Origin: Candidatus Bathyarchaeota archaeon
GTDB lineage: Archaea; Thermoproteota; Bathyarchaeia; Bathyarchaeales; Bathycorpusculaceae
Direction of reading: 5' to 3'
NCBI GenBank assembly: GCA_963739305.1
Contig: CAVTZU010000015.1
Location: 1 to 64,000 of the forward strand
Length of the DNA stretch: 64,000 nucleotides
This document shows positions 3,424-54,712 of this stretch, piece by piece; position 1 is the stretch's first letter, and every line of letters starts with the position of its first letter. Below the pieces are notes generated by a model. The model was not told where the DNA came from. It saw nothing but the letters and a program-made list of their open reading frames with translations, and ran no database searches. The translations under genes were made by a program, and so were the position numbers.

Positions 3424-4418
3424 CTATTTTCGTTTTCTGAACAGCTTCACCCCATCGACATCCAGATGACAAAGTCAAAACCTTGTTCTATGAGCTTCGC
3501 TGCTTCATCAACAGTTTTTGCAGTTGCGCAAACATAATCTCCTGGGAAGTCTGCCAAACCCTCAGCCAGATGAATGTAGATGAGAGTGTTTTCGAGTCTT
3601 CTGTGCCCGAGAACATACTTGACACGGAAAATATCTCTTGTCTTAATGTAAGTCATCGTTGCAAACCAGTGGCGCAGATCGTACAATCTTATTTTCAAAA
3701 GCTCAGCGTCCTCAAACTTCCCGTAAGCTCTCTGTCTGTAATCTCTCCAGTTTTCTTTTATCTTGCCCGCTGAACCAAACAGTCTTTTGTCAAGAGTGAC
3801 AATTCGTCTTCTATGAACATAGTCTCTAAGAATATCTGCAGACAATTTCTGAAGCTGAATCGTACGTTGAGCGCCAAGCTTACTCGTTGGAACGTTTATT
3901 CTGCCGTTTTCTAAGTCAATGTTCCTAAGCGTAAGCTTCGCAATCTCGTCAGGTCTAAGACCATGTTTGCTCAGGTTGAAGACTGCCGTGTAAACCCATC
4001 CGCAGCAAGCAATGATCGTGTCGATTCTTTCCTCAGTCGGGATATCAATCACAAACTCTTCGCTCTTCAGCTTCTTCGGCTTTCTATAACAGATATCATT
4101 GGCACAGCAAAAACGCTCATACGCTTCAAAGAGCTTGTTTTTGTAAACATTCTTACAGTTCATAGAATAAATGAATCGTTCAACGTCACCAGGAAGCTGA
4201 AGATTAACATGTTTGCCCAAGCATGTCAGTCTGCTCCAGATTGCTTTTTGATTAGCTTTGCTCAAATGCTGGAGTTTAGCTACGGTCTTTACGATAAGTG
4301 CAAAATCATTAATAGGCTGAAGGGATTCTAGACTCTGCGAAAGGGGCTGTCGGCTAGTTTGGTCTAGGCTTGGAGACTTGGGCTCTCTAGACCCCGGTTC
4401 AAATCCGGGCAGCCCCAT
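3424..4418 (-). CDS. tyrosine recombinase/integrase overlapping tRNA-Pro antisense; frameshift near C-terminus
   Basis: GLRPDE, SKLG, YDLRH, LGH, TLIY catalytic motifs; shifted frame ends DVDGVKLFRKRK*; first 25 codons are the tRNA antisense. Confidence 0.9.
4301..4314 (+). promoter_or_regulatory. putative BRE/TATA promoter of tRNA-Pro inside the integrase ORF
   Basis: CAAAATCATTAATA about 30 nt upstream of the mature tRNA 5' end. Confidence 0.5.
4343..4417 (+). tRNA. tRNA-Pro(TGG), intron-less
   Basis: acceptor GGGGCTG/CAGCCCC, anticodon arm GGAGA-CTTGGGC-TCTCT, T arm CCCGG-TTCAAAT-CCGGG. Confidence 0.93.
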
Positions 4419-4468
4419 GAAATGCTTATAATTTGACGCATATCAGATTGGTTTCAAAGGATGAATCC

Positions 4469-5029
4469 ATGAGTAGAATGCTGCTTCTCGTGCCAAGGAT
4501 GTACACCGAAAGCGAGGTCAAGAGACTCGTGTCAGTTGTCCCTGAGGATTTTGGGCAAAAGACTCAAGAGTTCTGGAGCTACGTTGAGGACAAGCTCAAG
4601 GTCTTCGCTGGGAGGATCCAGAGAGTCTACCGAGATGAGATCTGTCAAGGCGGAGAAGAAGGCCTTGCTATCCTGCCTTCTGTGCAGCATGAAAACTTTC
4701 TCATAGTGAAAAAACTCGTTGAGAACGGTGCCGTGTTCGAGGCAACGGAAGATCCTCTACTTGTCGCGGAGTCGGAGTCATGGCGTGACATGACTAGGCA
4801 GAATCCTTTGGACATTGTGTCTCTTGAAATGTTCCAGGATTCAGTCCGAGAAAGAGACGATTACGTTTCGAGGAGGATTAACGAAAGCCTCCTTGATGAG
4901 GAAACGGGAGTGCTCTTTGTAGGGCCGACGCGAACAGTTAACGTGGACGAACGCACAAAGATAATAAAGGTTTGCGGTTTTGACCCAGCGGACTACTTGA
5001 GGTCGTGGCAGGTTCAGTTGCACCTATAG
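4469..5029 (+). CDS. hypothetical protein; its 3' end is the integration target
   Basis: 187-codon ORF now ending WQVQLHL*; pre-integration end WQVQLNLKL* is reconstructable from 10671-10697. Confidence 0.8.
   Translation: MSRMLLLVPRMYTESEVKRLVSVVPEDFGQKTQEFWSYVEDKLKVFAGRIQRVYRDEICQGGEEGLAILPSVQHENFLIVKKLVENGAVFEATEDPLLVAESESWRDMTRQNPLDIVSLEMFQDSVRERDDYVSRRINESLLDEETGVLFVGPTRTVNVDERTKIIKVCGFDPADYLRSWQVQLHL
5009..5025 (+). repeat. attL CAGGTTCAGTTGCACCT
   Basis: 16/17 identical to 10671-10687. Confidence 0.85.
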
Positions 5030-5941
5030 ACTTTTCCACTGCACCTGCATACAAACCACAGATAATCCAAGACCTAATCAATTTCGCAATAGACATGAAG
5101 CAAAACGGCAAAGCCGAGGCAACAATATCCTCACGAACCAGAATTTTGAGACAACTCGCAAAGATGGCAGACCTCAGAGACCCCGAACAAGTCAAGACCA
5201 CCCTTTCGACACGCCAAACATGGAACAAACGGACAAGACGCAGAGTAGCCGAAACCTACGACGCATTCCTAAAATTCCTTGGTATCAAATGGACAAGACC
5301 GCGCTACATTCCAGAGGATCGACTCCCATTCATACCTACCGAAGCCGAAATTGACCAACTAATAGCCTCATGCGGAAGCCACACAGCAACGCTATTACAA
5401 ACACTAAAAGAAACTGGAATACGAATATCAGAAGCAACCTTCCTAAAATGGACTGACCTCTCATCCGAACAGAAAACACTAAACATCACACCAGCCAAAG
5501 GAAGCAATCCCAGACTCTTACGAATATCCGACAAACTTCTCAACATGCTAAACCGAATACCACGAACTAACGAAACGATATTCTCAACAAACATAGCAGG
5601 ACTGAGAACCACATTTACAAAAAGCAGAAAACTAGCTGCCAAAAAACTCGAAAACCCAAGAATCCTCAGAATATCATTTCACACTTTCCGACACTGGAAG
5701 GCAACAATGGAATACCACAAAACCAAAGACATCATACACGTAAAACAAATACTAGGACACAAATCCATAAACAACACAATGATTTACATCAACATCGAGC
5801 AAGCCCTATTTCTAACAGAAAACGACGAATGGACATGCAAAACAGCCAACAGACATCAAGCAAGCAACAGCACTAATCGAAGCAGGATTCGAGTACGTCA
5901 CCGAAATGGACGGAACTAAACTATTCAAAAAACGCAAATAA
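5011..5941 (+). CDS. integrase C-terminal fragment int(C); frameshift at ~5849
   Basis: GIRISE, PAKG, HTFRH, LGH, TMIY; shifted frame ends LIEAGFEYVTEMDGTKLFKKRK*; strongly A/C-rich codons. Confidence 0.92.
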
Positions 5942-43282: not shown

Positions 43283-43466
43283 TCGAAAGTAGCTATTTAA
43301 GTTTGATGTGTACCTTCGAAGAATCGGAAAAGAATTGGAAGGCTGATGCTAATGCTCATGCAGCCTCCAATTGGCAAACTTCCACTTGTTGATATTCAAT
43401 AAATGGGGGCGTTCTGAAAATCCTTATATTGATTTGAGGCGTTTGGGCTAACCTAAGAAGATAACG

Positions 43467-45311
43467 ATGAGTATAGCAAAGCCTCTTCTCGATTATGCTA
43501 AGTCGCTTAAACCGCAGAAGGGTTTCACGCAATCCTTTTCGGCTTTCAAAAGACTTTTGCAGTATCACAGGAGATACCCTTGGCATGTCGCGGCAATAGT
43601 TGTTCTTGCAGTAGTAAGATCCATTCTGTTCTCGCTCGAACCATTGTACACGTCAAATATCATCATCTACGTCATAGGACCCCCGACTAACACCAGTCTA
43701 TTGATGGGCTATCTACTCGTTATCGTTCTGGCCGGAATAGGCTACGCTATAACTAACTTCATTCTGACTTACGTGCACGGGGTAATGTCCCAGTACATAG
43801 TGCGAGACGTAAGGTCTGAGTATTACCGTTCGCTTCAGACCAAATCCTTCAGTTTTTATGATTCTGTAGGGGTTGGAGATCTAACATCAAGAGCCACGGT
43901 AGACCTTCAATTAGTCGACATGTTTCTGAGAACATGGCTGGGCACTGTTCTCAACGCTGTCTTCACAACAATTGTCATCATTGCGATAATCCTCCCGATA
44001 AGCCCGACCATGACCCTGATCTCCTTGGCCACGATGCCGCTCATCTTCTATTTCACAACGCGCCTATGGATAGACACGATGCCCCTCTTCAGAAATATGC
44101 AGTTAATCATGGGAAGATTGACTTCATACATACAGCAAAACATCATCGGAATGAAAACAGTCAGGATATTCCGCCGAGAAAAAGATGTTGTCGATGGATT
44201 CAAACAGGTAGAAGACGTATACGTGAACACGGCAATCACCGCGGGCAAAATACAGTCAATCTACATGCCGCTCGGTCCAGCGCTGCTCACGCTGGGAGCC
44301 GCCCTGGTCTACGTGTACGCAGGAATTACGCTGGGAGTTCCATACTCAGCGTTAGCGGTTGAACAAATTGGTTACTTGATTCTCTTTGTCAGATACATGA
44401 TGAGACTAACGTTTCCCATAAGGGACGCAAGCCAGACTTTGGGGACGTGGATTGCGGCTTATGCGGGACTGGAAAGAGTCCAAGAAATGATAGATGCTCC
44501 AAGAAGCGTTGAAGATATGCCTAACGCCAGGGACGTTAGGATAGAAAAAGGAAAACTTGAGCTGGAAAACGTCACGTTTGGGTACGTGAAAGACAGGCCT
44601 GTGCTAAATAAGGTCACTTTTACGGTGCAGCCAGGTGAAAAAATAGCGATACTGGGTGCAACAGGGTCCGGAAAGAGCTCTCTGATATACTTAATCCCAA
44701 GGTTTTACGACATCCAGGCGGGCAGCATAAAGATAGATGGCACGGACATCCGCGAATTCAAGCTGGCTTCTCTCAGGCGGCAGATAGGCGTGGTGCTGCA
44801 GGATGTTTTCCTGTTTTCTGGAACGATGAGGGAGAATATTGCTTTCGGTAAGCCTGACGCCTCGATGGATGAAATAGTGCAAGCTGCCAAGTCGGCCAGA
44901 ATACACGATTTCATTGAATCCCTTCCATCTGGTTACGACACACCTGTTGGGGAAAGGGGAGTCACGCTTTCGGGAGGGCAGAAGCAGAGAATAACCATAG
45001 CGAGAGCGCTCGTGGGCAACCCGAGGATGCTAATAATGGATGATTCGTTGTCCTTTGTGGACGCGAAGACGGAGCAAGAAATTCAGTCAGCAATAGAAGA
45101 AGCAACGAGGGCGAGGACAACCCTCATAATAGCGCAGAGATTCTCAACGATAAAGACGGCTAAGAAGATACTGGTCCTTGAGAACGGTTCAGTAGGGGAA
45201 TTTGGCACACACGAGGAGCTCATGGCAAAAGATGGCCTCTACAAGAAGGTCTATGAAACCCAATTTGTCCAAAAAGCTTCGCCCATCCTAGGGGAAGCAG
45301 GTGGTTCCTAG
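43467..45311 (+). CDS. ABC exporter, fused TMD-NBD subunit 1
   Basis: GATGSGKS, LSGGQ, degenerate Walker B (IMDDS). Confidence 0.93.
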   Translation: MSIAKPLLDYAKSLKPQKGFTQSFSAFKRLLQYHRRYPWHVAAIVVLAVVRSILFSLEPLYTSNIIIYVIGPPTNTSLLMGYLLVIVLAGIGYAITNFILTYVHGVMSQYIVRDVRSEYYRSLQTKSFSFYDSVGVGDLTSRATVDLQLVDMFLRTWLGTVLNAVFTTIVIIAIILPISPTMTLISLATMPLIFYFTTRLWIDTMPLFRNMQLIMGRLTSYIQQNIIGMKTVRIFRREKDVVDGFKQVEDVYVNTAITAGKIQSIYMPLGPALLTLGAALVYVYAGITLGVPYSALAVEQIGYLILFVRYMMRLTFPIRDASQTLGTWIAAYAGLERVQEMIDAPRSVEDMPNARDVRIEKGKLELENVTFGYVKDRPVLNKVTFTVQPGEKIAILGATGSGKSSLIYLIPRFYDIQAGSIKIDGTDIREFKLASLRRQIGVVLQDVFLFSGTMRENIAFGKPDASMDEIVQAAKSARIHDFIESLPSGYDTPVGERGVTLSGGQKQRITIARALVGNPRMLIMDDSLSFVDAKTEQEIQSAIEEATRARTTLIIAQRFSTIKTAKKILVLENGSVGEFGTHEELMAKDGLYKKVYETQFVQKASPILGEAGGS

Positions 45312-47124
45312 TGTCAGGTTCGTACGGGACTTTCTCGACAAAACAGGAAGAGAGAAGAAAAAGAACCGTCCGTGACCGGGTGTTGATTAGAAGGGTCTAC
45401 GAGTACGCTCAAGCCAACAAACGAAACCTGCAAATCGGCGTTGCCGCCACGATAGCCGGCGCCTTCACCGGCTTAGCTGCCCCCTACATGCACGCGATGG
45501 CCATCGACAGCATCATAACGCCGAAGAACCTTTCGGGCTTCATATGGTGGATCCCCCTGTTCGTCACTATAATTCTAGGCAACTATCTGTTCCAGTACAT
45601 CCAAACCTATCAAATGCGTATAGTGGGAGAAAAAGTTGTTGCAAAGATGCGGGACGACATGATGGAAAAGCTGCAGGTCATCTCCCTCAAGTATTTTTCA
45701 GAAGGTGAAGCTGGAAGAATAATCTCCCGGCCGACCAACGACGCCAACACCGTCAGAATATTCATCAGAGTTGGACTGACGAGCATTCTGGTAGACATCT
45801 CTTCGATACTAGGTGCCTTCGCAATTATGTTCTATCTTGACCTTCGACTGTCACTTCTGGCCATGTCAGTTCTGCCAGTGGCCATAGTGCTGGTCTGGTT
45901 CCTCGGAAAATACTCAAGAGCTGCTTACAGGAGAACGTTAATCACGACTTCAGGGTTGACGGCAAGGTTCCAGGAAGACTTGGCGGGCATGAAAGTCACT
46001 CAAGCTTACGCGCAGGAGAAAGAGACAGAAAAGAAGTTTCTAAAAAGTCAAGACGAAAACGTCAAGGCTACGATTAGAGCCATCCTCATAGGGTCGTCGT
46101 ACACGCCGTTTGTGATGGCACTGAGGCTGGTCGGAACCATGATAATCCTGTTCTTCGGCGTCTACGCTTTGTTGGCCGGAACGATCTCGTTAGGAATTCT
46201 TGTAGCCTTTATAGAGTACCAGTTCTCATATTTCATGCCGCTGGTTGACCTTGTAACGATGTACGACCAGTACCAGTCAGCGATGTCTGCGATTGAAAGA
46301 ATGTTCGATGTTATCGACACGAAAGTCGAAGTCGTGGACGCACCGCCTGAAAGGAGTATCGCATTGCAATGATAGAAGAAGTGAGATTCGAAAACGTAAA
46401 TTTCGCATACGACATTGATGTCCCAATTCTAAAGAACATCAACTTCACCCTGAAGCGCAACATGAAACTCGCAATTGTCGGCCAGACAGGCGCGGGAAAA
46501 AGCACGATAATCAACCTGCTCGCCAGATTCTACGATCCAGGCGAAGGCAGAATCCTCATAAATGGGCATGACATAAGAGACATTCCGCTCGCTTCTTTGA
46601 GAGGTCGCATGAGCACAGTGCTGCAGGACTCGTTTCTTTTTTCAGTTTCCATAAAGGAAAACATAAGGTTCGGGAAACTTGAAGCGTCAGATCAAGAAGT
46701 CGTAGACGCAGCAAAATCCATCGGTGCCCACGATTTCATAATGAAACTTCCCAACGACTACAACTACGTCATACAGGAAGGGTCTTCAAACATATCTATA
46801 GGTCAAAGACAACTCATAAGCTTCGCCAGAACACTACTCGCAAATCCCGAAATCCTAGTGCTGGACGAGGCGACATCCTCAGTTGACGCCTACACCGAAC
46901 TGGTGATTCAAAGAGCTCTAAAGAGACTGATGCAAAACAGAATGACGATAATAATCGCACATCGACTCTCAACGATCAGACTGTGCGACGAAATCCTAAC
47001 GATCGATCACGGCGAAATCGTGGAAAGAGGCACGCATGAACAGCTTATGCGCCAGAATGGGTTGTACAGTTCATTCTACAGACTGCAATTCAGAGAAGAA
47101 ACAGGAGCAGACACATCGCAATAG
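45311..47124 (+). CDS. ABC exporter, fused TMD-NBD subunit 2 (frameshift at ~46369)
   Basis: TMD 45311-46372 plus NBD 46369-47124 (GQTGAGKS, LDEATS). Confidence 0.88.
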
Positions 47125-47230
47125 TCTATGCGGACAATCGAAGAGACAAGCGTGACTGGCCGTGACAAATCATAGTGCATTTTAGTATGGGATACGTGGT
47201 AGAGTGCTTCCGCTTTTTCATAGGTTTATG

Positions 47231-47671
47231 TTAACCCTCTTCGGGAATATAGCGGGGGGTCCACAAATATCCTAGAATGTCTCGTATCTCCTTATCCATG
47301 TAGTTTTCAAGGTTGCGGGCAACATCGTAGGTTGTTAAGACGCCGTGAAGAGTCCCCTCTTTAACCACTGCTAGTCTCCGGATCTCGTGTTTTTTCATTA
47401 TCTTAGCTGCTTCTGTCAGATCCGCGTTCGGATCAATCGTTATCAGGGGTGTCGACATTACTTCGGCGACTCTCACGTTCTTCGGGTCAAGCCCTTTTGC
47501 AGCAACTTTCCAGGTCACATCGCGTTCGGTTACTATGCCAAACGGTTTTCCTTGCCGCAAAACAATAGCGCATCCCTCTCTTTTTTTGTACATATCTAGA
47601 GAGGCTTCAGCAACAGACACGCCTTCTTCAACGGTGACCATGCTTGTTCTCATAGCTTCGGCCGCCCTCAA
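47231..47671 (-). CDS. CBS domain protein
   Basis: GIVTERD, IRRLAV; start trimmed to the TTG after an RBS-like sequence. Confidence 0.88.
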   Translation of the reverse strand: MRAAEAMRTSMVTVEEGVSVAEASLDMYKKREGCAIVLRQGKPFGIVTERDVTWKVAAKGLDPKNVRVAEVMSTPLITIDPNADLTEAAKIMKKHEIRRLAVVKEGTLHGVLTTYDVARNLENYMDKEIRDILGYLWTPRYIPEEG

Positions 47672-47873
47672 AAACTTCCCCTTCCTATTGTTCAGAACAA
47701 CTCGAATACATTCTAGTGAATCCCAATAATTAAATAATACTATGGCCAGCCTAACTCTACTGAAACTTGAGGAGAACTTAAGAGAAGAGCAGCCTACGGA
47801 GTTTGCAAAGTATTCCAGCACTCATACGGCGGTAATGAGCTTTCTTTTCGGTCTCCGCAAACAATACGATCAT

Positions 47874-48683
47874 TTATGCGTCGCAGTGTCGGTTGGTGTA
47901 TCGACCTAGGATTTTCTGCTTTTCTGCCTGAATGATTGGTGGAATCTCAGATAGAGACTGAATAATGTAATCAGGCTGCAAATTCGCTTCTGATCCGATA
48001 CGTTCTTGTATTTCGCTCAGGACTTCTTCGGGGAGGCTCTTCAGGGCGTCGTTGAAATTCGATTTCTCGACTGTTCCTTCGATCATTATGGCAACTCCTC
48101 CGGCTCCCTTCGCAGCCAACACATCGAGTATCAGGTCGCCAACCATGAAGAAATGTGCAACGCCCAGTTTCTTGGCCGCAAACAAGATGCCCTCTGGATC
48201 AGGTTTCAGTTTTCTAACGCTCTCCCGGGTCACCGTGGCATCAAAGAAGCCGCCTAAGCCGTGAATCTGGAAAACGATGGCGACGGCTTCCTTCGAGGTG
48301 TTGGTGACGAGCCCCAACTTCGCTCCAAGTCGTCTAAGGGTTTCAAGCGTAGAGACGCAGTCGGGAAAGAGTTTTGACTTTCTGGCGGAATCAAGCTCGT
48401 AGCGTCTGAGGAACTTCTCCATCTCTCTTTGAAACCGTCTGGTCTCCGCTTTCGTGAAATTTCCTTCAACGTACGCCTCTGCCTTGTTACGCATTATCGT
48501 TGCACGTTCTACTCCTTCAAGAATTTCAGCTGGCACTCCCAGCGCTAACAGTTTTCTTCGCGTATTGCGTCTGAACTCTAAGACGTGTTCATGAATTGAC
48601 CAGGGAGTCTGGACTAACGTGTCCTCTAGATCAAACAACACTGCAAAGTCGCTTGCTGCTTCCGACTTCTTCAGTTTGTTCAT
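47874..48683 (-). CDS. HAD family hydrolase
   Basis: FDLEDT, VTN, KPDP, VGD...D; the upstream ORF extension is tRNA sequence. Confidence 0.88.
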   Translation of the reverse strand: MNKLKKSEAASDFAVLFDLEDTLVQTPWSIHEHVLEFRRNTRRKLLALGVPAEILEGVERATIMRNKAEAYVEGNFTKAETRRFQREMEKFLRRYELDSARKSKLFPDCVSTLETLRRLGAKLGLVTNTSKEAVAIVFQIHGLGGFFDATVTRESVRKLKPDPEGILFAAKKLGVAHFFMVGDLILDVLAAKGAGGVAIMIEGTVEKSNFNDALKSLPEEVLSEIQERIGSEANLQPDYIIQSLSEIPPIIQAEKQKILGRYTNRHCDA

Positions 48684-48765: not shown

Positions 48766-48921
48766 TGGTGTGGCCGGCCGGATTTGAACCGACGACCTAC
48801 GGGTCTCTCCGTGGTATGACTGTTCCAGAACTTCCTCATTCCCTCTCCGGTCGGTCGGTGGAAGTCCCTCGACTACACCTCTATCTCCCTTTACCACTTT
48901 CTGGAGCCCGTCGTCATACCT
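48766..48921 (-). tRNA. partial tRNA-Trp(CCA), lacking the first ~16 nt, with a 96-nt anticodon intron (displaced att copy)
   Basis: AGGTATGACGACGGGCTCCAG-[48805-48900]-ACCCGTAGGTCGTCGGTTCAAATCCGGCCGGCCACACCA; no 5' acceptor strand found upstream. Confidence 0.88.
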
Positions 48922-49022
48922 GACTTAATGCTTAGTAATTCTATGATGTTGTTCATTGTTTGGTTCTGGTTGATGGTGTCTTTTGTCTCTATACCATGTG
49001 TTTCTTCTGGTTGGGTGCTCAA
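48891..49022 (-). CDS. candidate int(N) fragment running into the tRNA att
   Basis: 43 aa LSTQPEE...IELLSIKSGMTTGSRKW*; ELLSIKSG parallels ELLRLKTG of int(N) at 10565. Confidence 0.6.
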   Translation of the reverse strand: MSTQPEETHGIETKDTINQNQTMNNIIELLSIKSGMTTGSRKW

Positions 49023-49162
49023 TATTTCGCCTTCCTTATTGGTTGACTTGTTCTTTCTCGGATTGTGACCACTAGGACTTTGATTACTCCTCTTGGGGTT
49101 CGGTAGGTTCCTATGTGGTCAAGGGCTATTATCTGTTCTTCTGGATTCTCGGTTCGTAACAT
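49019..49162 (-). CDS. 47-aa hypothetical protein, coupled to candidate int(N)
   Basis: MLRTENPEEQIIALDHIGTYRTPRGVIKVLVVTIRE...; TGA overlaps the next TTG. Confidence 0.45.
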   Translation of the reverse strand: MLRTENPEEQIIALDHIGTYRTPRGVIKVLVVTIRERTSQPIRKAKY

Positions 49163-49232
49163 ACATTACACATCCATTCACTTTCGTTGCGTTGACGCGA
49201 CGAGAAGGCAATACGCATTTCTAGCAGGGAGT

Positions 49233-49338
49233 CTAGAAGGAAGCTAAGCATAGTTGCAAGATTGGCTTCCGTACGGAATGAGAGACGACTTTTCCTCTTA
49301 AATTTCTAATGAGGGAAATGCCTATGCCTTCGAGGAGA
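49233..49338 (-). promoter_or_regulatory. second copy of conserved element leader
   Basis: aligns with 10390-10496. Confidence 0.75.
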
Positions 49339-49486
49339 TAGTTCATGCGTCATTCAGTTTAGTCGTGGTTTCACGTTTAGCGATCGGGTGTTTGAGTGCC
49401 TGTTCTATTGTATTTTTTGTTCTATTAGTGTTGCACTTCCCGTTTTTCGCGTAGTGAGTGCCTGCGATTGACGCGCGCGCTTGGTT

Positions 49487-50125
49487 TTAGTAGTAGTATG
49501 TTACCAATACAGTTTCAGTTGCGTTGTCAACAGCGTTTGTATTGCCTACTTGGATCTCTATGTTAGCTGGAAGGACTGGGAACCATGCTGAGCCGTTTGA
49601 ACCGACGTTTACTGTGTTATCATATTTGGCCCATCCGTTATACACGTATGAAAGTTCAACGAAGGTATCGTTTGTCGATGAAGAAACATGCACAACGACT
49701 AAACCAGCAACGTCTGCAGAATAGTTCCAAGAAGTACTACTATTGGCTGGTTGACTTACCGCCTCATTTTCCACCCAATCCTTATAAAATCCAAGATTAA
49801 TTTTGATTTCAAGCAACCCCACTTGAGTTGAAATGTTATTCACTTCAGACAATAAGAGCGACATATGAGATGAGTCATAGACGATCGTGGCATTTTGTTC
49901 AGCAAGCTTAAAACTGTCAGCCGCAATCGTTTCGTTCTCAGCTATCACTTGTTCTTGGAGAGTTGTCAATTCAGTGTTCAAGGCGGAAATCGTGTTGTTC
50001 TTATCAGCTATGTAATATGCAAGCGCTCCACCTAAACCAGCTACTAGAATAATGCAGGCTGCTACGAGTGCGATGGCGACACTTCTTCTAACAACTTTCC
50101 TTTCATTGACTTTTGGTTCACTCAT
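49487..50125 (-). CDS. membrane-anchored coiled-coil protein
   Basis: RSVAIAL TM anchor, coiled coil, beta-rich C-terminus ending YYY. Confidence 0.8.
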   Translation of the reverse strand: MSEPKVNERKVVRRSVAIALVAACIILVAGLGGALAYYIADKNNTISALNTELTTLQEQVIAENETIAADSFKLAEQNATIVYDSSHMSLLLSEVNNISTQVGLLEIKINLGFYKDWVENEAVSQPANSSTSWNYSADVAGLVVVHVSSSTNDTFVELSYVYNGWAKYDNTVNVGSNGSAWFPVLPANIEIQVGNTNAVDNATETVLVTYYY

Positions 50126-50324
50126 TCTTGAATCCCTAGTTTGTCTTCTGTTGCTGTGCAGATTAAAGATTTCTGTGTTTGTCGGCTTTGCGTTAACGAT
50201 TCTGAGCCGTCGGCGAAGCGGAACGTCATGGTTGTCAAGTCTCGGGTCTGGTTTTGCAGTCGGTGTGAGAAATCTGATGAGGCTGTTGCGCGCGCAATGT
50301 GTCTCACGTGGCATCAGTGTGAAT

Positions 50325-51128
50325 TCAGGTTGTTTTCTTTGTAACATCGGACTTGAGGAGTCTGTAAGCTGCTATTAGAGTGAATACGATCGCGTAGACG
50401 GCTATGATCAACGACGCTTGGGCAAGGGCTCCAAGGTCACCTGCGGGAAGCACACTGGACGATGTTATCAGTTCACTCATGACAAGCGACGGGAAGTTTG
50501 TTGCTGCCCATGTTGGAATAGCCCGCGTGCTTATGCCATAGAGAAGGGTTAAGATCGGGCTTATGATGTATGAAGCGATAAGTATTGCTAAGGCCAACAG
50601 AATTGCGAGAGTGGTTCCTCTGAAGACTTCGCTGAACATGAATGATAAACAGAAGAAAATGAGAGAAGAATATACAATGGCCAAAAACATTATCGGAGCA
50701 AATTGGAGACCGTTCTGTGCACCAAACAATCCGAGTGAAAGGGCAACGCCTACAAAGGTTATCAAGGCTTCAACCATGGCTAACAAGGAGAATCCGCCCA
50801 AGAACTTCCCAGACATGTACTCAACCCGCGTAATGGGTTTGGAGAGCAATATGTCAGCCGTCCCGTGTTCATATTCTTCAGACATTGAACCGCCGCCAAC
50901 TATGATGGCTATCAACTGAACAAACAAGCCACCTTCCAGCACGCCGGTAATCCACACTAGGGACGCTTCATTCGTCAAGAAACCCTCTGCAAACAGCGCG
51001 TGCATTCCAGCCATTATCAATGTTTGAATTGCTATGGCCAGGATTATGAGGGCAAGAACTTTCTTCTTAGCCAGGGCTCTCCTCCACTCGTACCCAGCGA
51101 TTACAGCGACTCTTCCGAGGGCGTCCAT
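50325..51128 (-). CDS. ABC-2 permease
   Basis: EEYEHGTADILLSKPITR. Confidence 0.9.
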   Translation of the reverse strand: MDALGRVAVIAGYEWRRALAKKKVLALIILAIAIQTLIMAGMHALFAEGFLTNEASLVWITGVLEGGLFVQLIAIIVGGGSMSEEYEHGTADILLSKPITRVEYMSGKFLGGFSLLAMVEALITFVGVALSLGLFGAQNGLQFAPIMFLAIVYSSLIFFCLSFMFSEVFRGTTLAILLALAILIASYIISPILTLLYGISTRAIPTWAATNFPSLVMSELITSSSVLPAGDLGALAQASLIIAVYAIVFTLIAAYRLLKSDVTKKTT

Positions 51129-51129
51129 G

Positions 51130-52068
51130 CTATTGACCTCCTTTTAGAGCTTGGAGATAAGCGTCTTCCAACGTAACCTTACGGAGGGTTAGGCCTAGCA
51201 ACACGCCTTTTTGTTTGAAGATTTCTGAGGAGATTTCGCCCCTCACGTCTTTTTTCTCCTTCAGCTCTATCGATAGCTTGTTTCCGTCCACCTTTACATC
51301 GTTCACGAACTCAAGCGCTTTAAGGCTTGAGACTATGTTTTCGGTTACTTTTTCAAGCTCGGCTTCCACTACCCATTGTTGAGTGAAAGCTTCCAGCATC
51401 TGTTCGATTGGTCCCGTGAAAACGATTTTTCCCTTGTTTATCATTCCTACGTGGGTGCAGATTCGCTGAACCTCGTCCAACAGGTGAGATGAAATAAAAA
51501 TTGTTTTGCCATCCTTTGAGAGTTTAGTGAAAAGGCTTCTGAAGTGAGCTGTGGCCTCTGGATCCATACCTATGGTGGGCTCATCCATTATCAGAACCAT
51601 TGGATCGTTGATAAGGGCAAGGGCCACAGACAGCCTCTGAACCATGCCTTTGCTGTAGTTTCCAATCTTCTTCTTTCCCCATTCTTTCAAACCGACAAGA
51701 TCTAGGAGCTGCTTAGTCTTTTCCTTTCTAGGCTGCATGGGCAACCCGAACATTTTGCCCATAAAGTCAAGCAACTGCTCTGCAGTGAAGAAAGTTTGAA
51801 GTGTTGGAAGCTCTGAAGCATACCCAACAAGTTGGAGCGCGTGAACGGGATCCTTTGAGGGATTTGCGCCAGCTATCTGAACTTCTCCTTGATTTGGTTT
51901 AAGGAGACCCAGCATAATCCTTATAGTAGTTGTTTTGCCCGCCCCGTTTGGTCCAAGATAGCCGTACACACAGCCTTTATCCACTTTGAAGGAAACAGAG
52001 TCCAAAGCCTCGAATTTTCCGTAGTACTTTGTCAGGTTTGAAACGCTCAAAACCGAAGTGGACGCCAA
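51130..52068 (-). CDS. ABC transporter ATP-binding protein
   Basis: GPNGAGKT, YSKGM, MDEPT. Confidence 0.93.
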   Translation of the reverse strand: MASTSVLSVSNLTKYYGKFEALDSVSFKVDKGCVYGYLGPNGAGKTTTIRIMLGLLKPNQGEVQIAGANPSKDPVHALQLVGYASELPTLQTFFTAEQLLDFMGKMFGLPMQPRKEKTKQLLDLVGLKEWGKKKIGNYSKGMVQRLSVALALINDPMVLIMDEPTIGMDPEATAHFRSLFTKLSKDGKTIFISSHLLDEVQRICTHVGMINKGKIVFTGPIEQMLEAFTQQWVVEAELEKVTENIVSSLKALEFVNDVKVDGNKLSIELKEKKDVRGEISSEIFKQKGVLLGLTLRKVTLEDAYLQALKGGQ

Positions 52069-52200
52069 AAAGATTACCCAGTTCTTAACTATCTTGCGTA
52101 GGCACGCCTAATAACATTTAGGGTTATCACCTATTCGTTGCTATACCTCTTGCTATTCCGCCGGCAGCGTTGCCTTCCTAATAACAAAACGCGCGCGCTA

Positions 52201-52232
52201 GCTGTTGTTTTGAGTTTTTGTGGGTTAGAGCG
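52201..52232 (+). repeat. 32-bp direct repeat, copy 1
   Basis: 28/32 identical to 54149-54180. Confidence 0.8.
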
Positions 52233-52282
52233 TCATCTATAGTCTTATTAGATTAAATCCGACACTCCTAAAAGAGGAAGCA

Positions 52283-53292
52283 GTGATGTCAGGTAGAGCT
52301 GTAGAAGTAGATCTGAGAAAGGTTAGACCAAACAGGTTCAATCCAAGGCTAGACTTCAATGAAGAAGACCTCAGGAATCTGGCAGATAGCATTCGAGAGA
52401 AAGGTCTTTTGCAGCCGATTATCGTCAGACCCGTAGACAATGAGTTTGAGGTCGTTGTCGGTGAAAGACGGTATAGGGCTGCCCAGAAAGCAGGGATGGA
52501 ACGGATTCCAGTGGTGATTCGAGAGTACTCAGACGAGGAGGTAATTGAACTAAGTCTGATTGAGAATATTCAGAGAACAGATCTAAGCGCGGTTGAGAAA
52601 GGTAACAGTTGCAAGCAACTTATGGAGAAATATCCTCAGAAGTTTCCGAATAAGGGAGCCATAGCGAAATCATTGAGAGTCTCTGAAACAACTATTTCGG
52701 CTTGGCTAGAGCTTGTTGAGGCGCCTAATGAGCTTCAGAGAATGATTGCTCCTGCAGGCAAAATCGGTGTTCCGAGAGAACAGGGGAAAATCGATTGGGA
52801 CACAGCGGTTACTATTACTAGGCAGATAGAACAACCAGATAGACAAGTATCAATCGCGAGGGAAATCGCTAGAAGACCAATTTACAGAAGACAGGCGAGG
52901 GAAGTAATATCAAAGGCTGCAAAACAGCCTGAGAGACCAATTGAACAGATATTCAAGGAGGTAGTCGAGGCTCCTTATGAGATGCCCTTTCGACTTGTAC
53001 ATATGAAACCGATTCTGGATGGAGAGAAAATTCAGAGTTCTAGAAAAGGCATTTCAGATCCTCGCGTCAAAATCGGATCAATAATACATGGGCAGTTTGG
53101 GAACCGAACTTTGCCACGTTGCGTGTCGTTTCGATGGTAAGAAAGCGTCTTGGAGAATTCACTGAAGAGGATGCAAAAAGGGAAGGTGGCTATACTCTCG
53201 CAGAATTCAAGAAGACTTGGAAGAATCTGCATGGTGATTGGAATGAGAACGAGTTCGTCTACGTCTTTGGCTTCCAACTGGTCAGGCAGTAG
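52283..53292 (+). CDS. ParB-domain / ASCH-domain fusion (frameshift at ~53090)
   Basis: GLLQPIIVR, GERRYRA, ENIQR; then ILDGEKIQSSR and, in shifted frame, FTEEDAKREGG...VYVFGF*. Confidence 0.85.
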
Positions 53293-53300
53293 GCGATAGC

Positions 53301-54029
53301 ATGTCATGGCGGAAAGAGTCTATTTTAGTTTTGGTTAAGGCGGCACCCAATTGGAGCGACAAATATGGATCATACCTCGTTTGCACTGGTGGCATAACTA
53401 AATCAAATCAGTGGAGGCGCCTATATCCAATGCCTCTGGACTTTATCGTCGGAAAGGTACACCGATGGGACATGATAGAGGTCAACACTACAGAACCTGA
53501 ACATGATCCTCGTTCTGAGAGCAGAAAAATAGATCCAAGTTCAATTGTTGTTGGCGGAAGCTTTTCAAAAGACAAAGAGGAGCGTCGAGTGCTCTTGAAC
53601 AAGCTAGCTGAGAAATCTCTGGACGTGGCAATTGGAGAGAGACGGTCTATCATTCTGATCAAACCAGAGATAGTTGACTTCCACATAGTTGAAAGAAAAG
53701 ATAAGCCAGTGCAGCTTACGCTGAACGGTGAAGTGTTCAAGGAACAACCCTACAGAGACGTAAGCCTCTACTATCGGTGGAATTGTCCAGAACGGTGTCA
53801 TGTGTGCAGCAGACATCCTCACCACATGGAATGCTTCGATTGGGGTGCAGGCGTCCTTTGGAGCAGGTATAAGGCAGACAGAAAAGTCGCCGAGGAGAAG
53901 ATCACTGAAATGTGTTACGACAATATGAAAGAGAAATTCGATGCTTGGTTTGCTTTGGGAACACACAGTCGCCGTCCCTTTAGCAAGTGGATGGTAGTGA
54001 GTCTCTTGTGGATGAAGAAAGCGTTCTAG
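53301..54029 (+). CDS. conserved hypothetical protein (OB-fold-like, KxxP..S.KY...VCT.G...W.RLYP family)
   Basis: LVKAAPNWSDKYGSYLVCTGG...WRRLYP; DPRSES; C/H cluster before DW. Confidence 0.75.
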   Translation: MSWRKESILVLVKAAPNWSDKYGSYLVCTGGITKSNQWRRLYPMPLDFIVGKVHRWDMIEVNTTEPEHDPRSESRKIDPSSIVVGGSFSKDKEERRVLLNKLAEKSLDVAIGERRSIILIKPEIVDFHIVERKDKPVQLTLNGEVFKEQPYRDVSLYYRWNCPERCHVCSRHPHHMECFDWGAGVLWSRYKADRKVAEEKITEMCYDNMKEKFDAWFALGTHSRRPFSKWMVVSLLWMKKAF

Positions 54030-54148
54030 TCTCCTTTTGCGTGCGCGCTGTTTGGCGAAAGCCCGCGCAATCAAGTGAATGATGAGTAATCCTTTGGAAG
54101 TTCAGGAGCGCGCGTCTCTTTTTGCCATTCTTTTCGGCGTTTGTCTGA

Positions 54149-54180
54149 GTTGTTGTTTTCAATTTTTGTGGGTTGGAGCG
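54149..54180 (+). repeat. 32-bp direct repeat, copy 2
   Basis: 28/32 identical to 52201-52232. Confidence 0.8.
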
Positions 54181-54244
54181 CGAGCGTGATGCGAGCGCGA
54201 CATAATGAGCGCGCGCTAAGGGGCGGGCTTGACTTGGAAAAGGG

Positions 54245-54445
54245 TGGTGGGGCCGGGCGGATTTGAACCACCGACCTTTACCCAGAGCAGTGCACGAAGC
54301 GCCGCTCCTACGGGTTTCTTCTGACAGCTCCAGAACCTCTTCATCCCTTTTTGAGGTCCGTAAACCCGTCACTACTTTCTGGAGCCCGTCGTCATACTTG
54401 ATCCGATCGATCGATCGATCGATCGTCTGCCTAGACTACGACCCC
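54245..54445 (-). tRNA. tRNA-Trp(CCA) with three introns
   Basis: exons join to GGGGTCGTAGTCTAGGCAG|GTATGACGACGGGCTCCAG|ACCCGT|AGGTCGGTGGTTCAAATCCGCCCGGCCCCACCA; introns 54398-54426 (D loop), 54316-54378 (37/38), 54278-54309 (43/44, clear BHB). Confidence 0.92.
54316..54378 (-). ncRNA. intron-encoded C/D-box-like guide RNA
   Basis: guides ACGGGTTT and TTCTGGAG complementary to the flanking tRNA segments; CGGA (D'-like) and ATGAAGA (C'-like); a known feature of archaeal tRNA-Trp introns. Confidence 0.7.
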
Positions 54446-54586: not shown

Positions 54587-54712
54587 GGGGTTCGCCGGCC
54601 ATAGGGCGCGGGTCCCACCTGATCCCATACCGAACTCAGAAGTTAAACCGCGCTCCGTTTCCGGCTGTAGTATGGTCTTCGGCCATGTCAACCCGGGAAA
54701 GCTGGTAACCCC
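54587..54712 (+). rRNA. rrf: 5S rRNA
   Basis: GGCCATAG...CACCTGATCCCATACCGAACTCAGAAGTTAAACC; terminal GGGGTT/AACCCC stem. Confidence 0.95.

Follow-up and report, generated by a model that had tools for sequence, protein, structure and literature searches.

The tRNA-Trp locus of a Bathyarchaeia archaeon (G000) is probably what remains, locked in place, of a Bathyarchaeia integrative element of the tyrosine-recombinase type that targets the tRNA-Trp gene. The locus spans positions 48766-54445 of the window, by which we mean the whole 64-kb stretch of contig C15 that was analysed and to which all coordinates refer unless another contig is named. It holds one complete tRNA-Trp gene and, ~5.3 kb away, an orphan back part of a second tRNA-Trp, with an island of other genes between them. 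The assembly is a metagenome bin of 2.3 Mb in 36 contigs that is 97% complete; other G-numbers denote relative genomes and C-numbers contigs. Comparisons covered 401 genomes of the order and 332 of the family, and the genome-wide DNA identity of G000 to all of its congeners is ~75-78%.

The complete tRNA-Trp(CCA) gene (54445->54245, minus strand) is the only one in the assembly according to ARAGORN with introns allowed, which gives the same ends and the wrong label. It carries three inserts, in the D loop, the anticodon and the variable loop. Exon positions 1-19 are followed by a 29-nt D-loop insert containing (GATC)5 (54426-54398), then GTATGACGACGGGCTCCAG, a 63-nt anticodon intron (~54378-54316) and a 32-nt variable-loop insert (within 54309-54274, ambiguously placed at 43/44 or 46/47), all on the minus strand. 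The T stem is GGTGG/CCGCC and the acceptor strand CGGCCCC, and the acceptor and T arms fold (free-energy fold, z-score -3.1). A first-pass annotation of this DNA had described the 63-nt intron, an extra variable-loop intron and a T stem different from that of the orphan, all of which are present; the D-loop insert, which it did not describe as an intron, comes in addition. Both kinds of insert recur at the same tRNA-Trp sites in relatives, the 5' insert in 18 and the variable-loop insert in ~38 of 68 distinct complete genes taken from the loci examined, a biased sample in which the counts were corrected for four g33-type genes misscored for the variable-loop insert.

The orphan (48922->48766, minus strand) has its first bases in the 3' part of the D loop (CAGGTATGAC). 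Beyond the recombination core discussed below, its 3' remainder (48766-48909) comprises the anticodon stem-loop with a 96-nt intron, a T arm GTCGG/CCGGC, the acceptor CGGCCAC and an encoded CCA, and it has no variable-loop insert. The A at 48771 is A71, which faces G2 of the single front part that the genome has, and the orphan folds no better than shuffled sequences (z-score -0.5). The two back parts share an exact 24-bp stretch, GTATGACGACGGGCTCCAGAAAGT, on the minus strand at 54374-54397 in the complete gene and at 48896-48919 in the orphan, and blastn-short finds only these two copies in the assembly. The 96-nt intron, the missing variable-loop intron, the acceptor mismatch, the shared 24 bp and the places of the two pieces are all as first annotated.

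Could the orphan be a working 3' half that joins in trans with a 5' half encoded elsewhere and beginning GUGG? Its acceptor CGGCCAC would pair perfectly with GUGGCCG or GUGGUCG, and the first-pass annotation had named a separate 5' piece as the observation that would overturn its own account. However, a regular-expression search of all 36 contigs for a front part with a tRNA-Trp D arm returned a single match, at 54445, and an anticodon-arm search gave two tRNA-like matches plus one chance match in a coding region on C26. The orphan is also preceded by integrase coding sequence instead of a promoter or leader, its fold is at the level of shuffles, and a complete gene is present. We therefore regard a split tRNA as vanishingly improbable.

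Related intact elements, found by searching the orphan against the genomes of the order and then reading the loci, show how such pieces can arise. At the left junction (attL) of G316, the host front piece GGGGTCGTAGTCTAGGCAGGTATGACGAC runs into a 318-amino-acid open reading frame whose ATG lies within that sequence and which encodes a tyrosine recombinase (PF00589, E 1e-18). The integrase is followed after 55 bp by a complete tRNA-Trp, itself with a D-loop insert, and then by the cargo, and 6.6 kb from attL the right junction (attR) consists of AGAATTACTAAGCCTTAAGGCAG and GTATGACGACGGGCTCCAGA followed by the back remainder with its variable-loop intron. The same layout is found in G368, G293 and G247 and in a remnant in G281. 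The g33 elements carry their tRNA on the opposite strand, with an altered D arm and anticodon stem in place of the insert. Across these relatives the 29-nt host front, GGGG..GTAGTCTAG.CAGGTATGACGA, is fused at attL to the start codon of reading frames of 318-329 amino acids (PF00589, E 1e-18 to 7e-21). This junction occurs in 8 of the 332 family genomes, representing 5 genera, and a reversed-pattern control matched 1 of 332. A complete tRNA-Trp lies no more than 3 kb inside the element in seven of the eight, and the contig of the eighth is only 2.6 kb long.

Neither junction rebuilds a tRNA in these genomes: attL joins the front piece to the integrase and attR joins an element arm to the remainder (both in G316, G368 and G293; attL only in G247). 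Five genomes (G316, G368, G293, G247 and G317) have exactly two tRNA-Trp anticodon arms each, one in the complete gene and one in the remainder, the second arm of G247 being on contig C30. Thus, in the genomes that retain an integrase, the carried gene is the only complete tRNA-Trp. These counts come from a census by the 12-mer RCGGGCTCCAGA that proved too noisy across the 332 genomes, since the reversed control also matches, and that was used for the five named genomes only.

The sequence shared between host and element in G316 is 16 bp, and the working core is 13-16 bp, A/GGCAGGTATGACGAC, at tRNA positions ~17-28. By comparison with attL and attR of the relatives, the corresponding core in the orphan would be CAGGTATGACGAC (48922-48910, minus strand). 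The 24-bp stretch, first proposed as the crossover core, is therefore longer than the segment that appears to recombine, which covers the D loop, the D stem and the start of the anticodon stem; the rest is ordinary tRNA conservation. In the element tRNA the core copy is broken by the D-loop insert or has diverged, so the carried tRNA is not itself a target.

A separate set of inserts was noted at the edge of this core. Six of the 68 tRNA-Trp genes (L026, L063, L066, L067, L070 and L014, from other families of the order) have a 32-46-nt insert exactly after GACGAC (28/29), and several of them also have a separate D-loop insert. It is at this site that the element junctions, attL and attR, diverge from the tRNA sequence.

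G000 appears to retain one end of such an element. The 23 nt that precede the orphan core, AGAATTACTAAGCATTAAGTCAG, align with the attR arms of G316, G368, G293 and G281, and at all six attR or orphan junctions the arm stays open in the frame of the core ATG. The putative remnant of the integrase N-terminal piece (48920-48956, minus strand) begins with an ATG at 48956 and reads MNNIIELLSIKSG, then MTT, in frame with the core ATG. Because the arm is open at all six junctions, the integrase of the free element would start 13-36 codons earlier, with the attachment site of the element (attP) inside its gene. The attR of G368 (L092 18575-18620) has its 23-bp arm, AAAATTACTAAGCCCTAAGGCAG, in tandem duplicate, and the integrase N-terminal piece is thereby frameshifted.

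Taken with the intact elements, these features suggest the following course of events. In the relatives attP overlaps the 5' end of the integrase gene, and recombination at the core splits the host tRNA gene into the attL front piece and the attR remainder. In G000 such an element would have entered with the 5S rRNA on one flank and the HAD gene on the other. A deletion then probably removed the integrase: the first 19 nt of the element tRNA are identical to the host front piece and would have lain in direct repeat with it, so that recombination could join these two tRNA front parts. G316 and G247 still show both copies, front piece and carried tRNA, in direct repeat ~1 kb apart. The host promoter would then drive a tRNA-Trp that is element-derived from about position 20 on, D-loop insert included, and the 5.3 kb of cargo (an ABC-2 transporter, a ParB-ASCH protein and a PDC-M19B-like protein) and the old remainder would be left behind, the remainder later gaining C71->A. 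The net effect would be the exchange of a long-intron, two-exon back part for one with the 63-nt intron, the variable-loop intron and the D-loop insert, and the unoccupied site predicted by this course is GGGGTCGTAGTCTAGGCAG joined to the orphan. The sequence comparisons support the reading that everything from the body of the complete gene to the orphan was brought in. A similar integrase-less end state, reached by a slightly different joint, is seen in G317, a congener of G316. Its complete gene sits at the native flank, has no D insert and matches the carried tRNA of G316 at 137/139 positions, and 1.8 kb downstream of it comes an orphan whose intron set is different; there is no integrase. 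The remainders of G316 and G317 adjoin the same host genes.

The first-pass annotation had proposed that integration displaced the old 3' half and installed one borne by the element. The displacement holds up, in that the HAD side and the conserved element end identify the orphan as the displaced resident back part. The installation needs revision, as the element brings no 3' half to rebuild the gene, and the elements of relatives instead split the gene and carry a separate, whole tRNA-Trp. In its classical form the earlier account has an attP that contains a tRNA-Trp 3' half, a crossover within the 24 bp that rebuilt a hybrid gene and displaced the host 3' half, and a later loss of the integrase. 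An exact 24-bp common stretch with divergence on both sides is what such a crossover would leave, and rebuilding of the tRNA is given as the rule for known archaeal and bacterial integrases in a review (PMC8371274). Yet neither junction of the related intact elements is a tRNA gene, their complete tRNA is separate and internal, and the arm before the G000 orphan encodes an integrase N-terminus and no tRNA part. Furthermore, the D-loop insert, which lies upstream of the supposed crossover, resembles inserts that are element-borne (G316e, G247e) and resident (G285, G010). The classical course is accordingly improbable for this locus.

The flanks bear on where the element landed. The 5' side of the tRNA (5S rRNA, DUF1512 onward) is kept in every relative, and the 5S rRNA gene (54591-54710, plus strand) adjoins the tRNA 5' end in all congeners. 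The other side varies within the genus, with a P-type ATPase in G008, G001 and G002 and a glycyl-radical enzyme pair in G005 and G009. The congener G004 has an intact tRNA-Trp, a trailer and then directly a HAD-family hydrolase gene; in G000 the orphan is followed by a similar trailer (CACAAAC) and directly downstream by a HAD-family hydrolase gene (47874-48665, minus strand), and the HAD promoter region also aligns. By this shared order the orphan sits at the position of the resident tRNA 3' end. No island DNA was found at the tRNA-Trp locus of 10 relatives.

Several observations weigh against the reading of the locus as an element remnant. No integrase remains in the island, where a Pfam search of 6 reading frames gave no PF00589 match and tblastn with three related integrases gave matches elsewhere in the genome and none between 48.7 and 54.5 kb; without an integrase or a fragment of one in or beside the island, beyond the arm, the integration step is drawn by analogy with the relatives only. 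A pattern search of the genome likewise found no attL junction of front piece and integrase. A free circular attP (arm, core and integrase start) was found neither in IMG/VR nor, with a strict pattern, in metagenome contigs of the Joint Genome Institute (JGI). The D-loop and variable-loop inserts are candidate bulge-helix-bulge introns, backed indirectly by their recurrence at the same sites in relatives and by the gene being the only tRNA-Trp of the assembly. Introns of the 63-nt type and of the 32-nt variable-loop type are native in most relatives and are the ordinary form in the family and order. The element-free G328 shares the anticodon intron and trailer of the complete gene, whose body could thus be vertically inherited. 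The island ABC-2 permease and ATPase genes (50290-52124) are 89% identical to an ordinary chromosomal pair in G001 (C1:1963214-1965045). Finally, a neighbouring homologous exchange (below) shows that import of a ready-made island is possible, and the bin has 7.8% contamination.

A loose attP pattern matched 21 JGI contigs, all of unrelated coding sequence, and an integrase profile search of IMG/VR gave two distant matches of 41% and 35% identity.

The contamination, and the coexistence of several tRNA-Trp alleles in the same peat metagenomes, could suggest an assembly chimera of two strains with different alleles. However, a frontless orphan with the element arm also occurs in five other genomes from other studies, and the 24-bp repeat is shorter than the words usually used in assembly. 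A 202-nt contig from public run X3 covers 48775-48976, including the arm, the core and the T arm, with zero differences; X3 may be the source sample, so this contig is not independent support. An artefact is thus highly improbable. None of 20 public sequencing runs is recorded as RNA, and the four that were used have short contigs, too short to bridge the island. Apparent joints in the runs, 48798->54299/54320, were considered as deletion forms and rejected, as other letters lie between and they represent other tRNA-Trp alleles of the community.

Alternatively, the whole block, perhaps with the HAD gene, may have formed in another Bathyarchaeia lineage and entered G000 by homologous recombination, in which case the orphan would be the remainder of the donor. 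Homologous import does occur here. The adjoining 4.4 kb (43360-47790), which encode two ABC exporter genes and a CBS protein, are 90-94% identical in DNA to G001, G002 and G008 against 75-78% for the rest of the window, and the block is, judged by this identity, a recent homologous exchange with the G001/G002/G008 lineage beside the tRNA-Trp locus. The HAD protein is only 59-64% identical to any relative found (nothing exceeded 64% protein identity in 301 family genomes), the orphan intron is closest to that of another genus (G391, 80%), and the ABC-2 pair resembles that of G001. On the other hand, no donor carrying the island was found among the 401 order or 332 family genomes, and the HAD promoter region and the trailer still align with G004. 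Such an import is unlikely in our view, and it would change the host of integration and not the event itself. That host may have been the own line of G000 or another from which the block was imported by homologous recombination. We continue with the remnant of a tRNA-Trp-targeting element as the preferred reading.

The first-pass annotation predicted that island-free relatives would carry a gene of the 96-nt type, and this is borne out in part. The complete tRNA-Trp of G391, with a 100-nt intron, matches the orphan at 80% over all 160 nt, and three congeners of G000 (G010, G009 and G001) have related long introns and no variable-loop insert. The long-intron form is the rarer one, seen in G391, G382, G010, G009 and G001. 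The same annotation held that native 63-nt and 32-nt introns in relatives would speak against its account. They are indeed native, and displacement is not thereby refuted; these introns are the common family form, and the element would have re-installed a common allele.

The complete gene itself has no single closest relative. Against G005 it is identical in the variable region (36/36) and in the T arm and acceptor (26/26), an allele that combines the variable-loop insert GGAGCGGCGCTTCGTGCACTGCTCTGGGTAA with the T stem GGTGG; the upstream region agrees at 41/63 and the trailer at 19/49. The D insert is closest to those of resident genes in G285 (26/29) and G010 (25/29), with element-borne inserts at 21/29 (G316e) and 21/30 (G247e). 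The anticodon intron and the 25-nt trailer are closest to G328 (59/62 and 32/42). The gene thus looks like a patchwork, a pattern consistent with repeated replacement and with conversion between carried and resident copies. A complete-gene query found no element-borne copy of the G000 allele in the 332 family genomes. The carried alleles of G316 and G247 are identical at 160/169 positions, and their integrases are only 66% identical.

The introns may also carry guides. The intron of archaeal pre-tRNA-Trp is a box C/D guide in Haloferax and other Euryarchaeota, and by the box C/D rule such guides place C34 and position 39 five nt upstream of D and D'. In the 63-nt intron, UUCUGGAGC is complementary to GCUCCAGAA (anticodon loop, C34), and ACGGGUUU is complementary to AAACCCGU, which comprises the intron end and positions 38-43 and includes position 39. 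A CUGA-like box follows each candidate guide, with GAUGAAGA between them, and the boxes are degenerate (GUCA, CGGA). The likeness to box C/D guide introns lies in this complementarity to the C34 and 39 sides, as read from the sequence. The 96-nt intron of the orphan has a candidate guide for the C34 side only, with one mismatch (UUCUGGAAC), and none for position 39. Rfam gave no family for either tRNA piece beyond chance-level matches and no match to a guide family model.

How do these elements compare with known ones? Elements are reportedly trapped as integrase-less islands, a process termed 'gene capture' by She et al. SSV-type ('suicidal') and pTN3-like elements resemble those described here in having a tyrosine recombinase with attP inside its own gene, which is parted on integration. 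The elements of G316, G368 and G293 have a tyrosine recombinase and the G000 island does not; the integrase is parted into N- and C-terminal pieces at attR and attL in the relatives, and G000 keeps only the N-terminal remnant. A short direct repeat of tRNA sequence marks both ends, of 24 bp in G000 and 16 bp in G316. In contrast to those systems, integration removes no more than a 13-36-amino-acid N-terminal piece, and a start codon within the core stays with the large piece. The core is only 13-16 bp, the tRNA is rebuilt at neither junction and a whole replacement tRNA-Trp travels as cargo. The comparison made here is one of layout. According to the 2021 review on archaeal tyrosine recombinases, the tRNA is reconstituted intact once integration is complete, and pTN3-like integrases have the 5' half of a tRNA gene as their chromosomal target (attB); the review cites Sugahara et al. 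as a proposal for intron transfer (PMC8371274). This rebuild rule does not hold for an element that disrupts an essential tRNA gene and brings the replacement with it, and our search of the available literature found no described element of this kind.

The core idea is closely related to that of Sugahara et al. 2012, and the revision made here concerns the mechanism of the earlier annotation, not its outcome. Those authors described a Caldiarchaeum subterraneum tRNA-Thr locus that holds, besides a 5' fragment and a recombinase, a complete gene with an extra intron at 24/25, and they proposed a mobile element as the carrier of tRNA introns, with the intron in turn barring further integration (PMC3293823). 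The tRNA fragment, the recombinase and the complete, intron-added tRNA in direct repeat are likewise found in G316 and G247. The case of 2012, so far the sole example worked out for a mobile element delivering introns, is one locus in one population; it was interpreted as a pNOB8-type attP with the tRNA 5' part included and the gene rebuilt. Here there are instead three tRNA pieces (front piece, whole element gene and back remainder), the junction recurs in 8 genomes of 5 genera, whole intron sets including the anticodon intron are exchanged, and two later, integrase-less stages are represented (G000, G317). The pattern expected from the 2012 model is also seen at the G000 locus, with an orphan beside a complete gene that has different introns, and unoccupied relatives in G004 (HAD-adjacent) and in G391 and G010 (long intron).

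The loci can be arranged in natural stages, from an unoccupied site, through an element with integrase and its own tRNA, to loss of the integrase with the orphan kept, and finally to loss of the orphan. Along such a series, an essential tRNA gene present in a single copy would have its intron sets exchanged whole between genera. Introns are said by Randau and Söll to protect tRNA genes from integration, and a D-loop insert inside a 13-16-bp recombination core offers a concrete test case for this idea. More broadly, these elements may routinely destroy the single tRNA-Trp of their host, substitute an integrase-immune copy and act as the main vehicle that shuffles tRNA-Trp introns across genera, a generalization that we put forward tentatively and at somewhat less than even odds. 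If it were true, the host would depend on the element for tryptophan decoding and later elements of the same kind would find no target. After loss of the integrase the foreign allele would become the resident one, and the 28/29 inserts in other families would be footprints of the process. D-loop, box C/D anticodon and variable-loop introns would then be gained, lost and shuffled through these elements. The locus is relevant to work on both tRNA introns and archaeal mobile elements as one concrete route by which tRNA genes and their introns may pass between archaea. A 2026 preprint on Asgard tRNA genes, which tested mobile elements and other routes, states that 'how they arrive remains open' (10.64898/2026.10.13.758758).

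The island cargo has nothing in common with that of G316, G368, G293, G317, G285 or G328. From the orphan side it begins with a membrane protein gene without a family match (49487-50347, minus strand), followed by genes for an ABC-2 permease (50325-51128, minus strand; PF12679, E 3e-15) and an ABC transporter ATPase (51130-52068, minus strand). This pair is 79-81% identical to pairs in G002, G008 and G009, and G000 has no second copy. A ParB_N-HTH protein with a C-terminal ASCH domain (52283-53292, plus strand) has its gene disrupted by a frameshift around 53090-53140. In contigs of runs X2 and X5 one more C follows 53090 and would put the ParB_N-HTH and ASCH parts in a single frame, so the break may be strain-specific or an assembly error. 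The last cargo gene (53301-54029, plus strand) encodes a 242-amino-acid protein that matches the candidate defence component PDC-M19B (E 1.9e-28) and also phrog_25907.

Three repeated stretches occur within the island. The ~480-bp non-coding stretch at 48994-49473 is 91% identical to C25:12460-12937 and has weaker copies at C10:8348-8643 and C15:10361-10529, and every copy is downstream of a gene for a secreted or membrane protein. A 58-bp stretch (50128-50185), just upstream of the likely true start of the 286-amino-acid membrane protein, has 13 other copies in the genome, including a row of four on C22. A 60-bp G+C-rich (GCGCGC-rich) repeat at 54148-54207, 36 nt past the tRNA 3' end, has copies on C30, C28, C8, C25 and C26 (two) and at C15:7076-7129 and 52200-52232, and it is multi-copy in G008, G009 and G005 too.

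Elsewhere in the window, the tRNA-Pro(TGG) gene at 4343-4417 is overlapped antisense by a 323-amino-acid integrase-like reading frame (3447-4418) whose start lies within the tRNA 3' end, and a second integrase homologue (5005-5919) is 47-51% identical to the integrases of the tRNA-Trp elements. The region 3447-5919 probably marks another integrated element, of the classical kind that leaves the tRNA whole.

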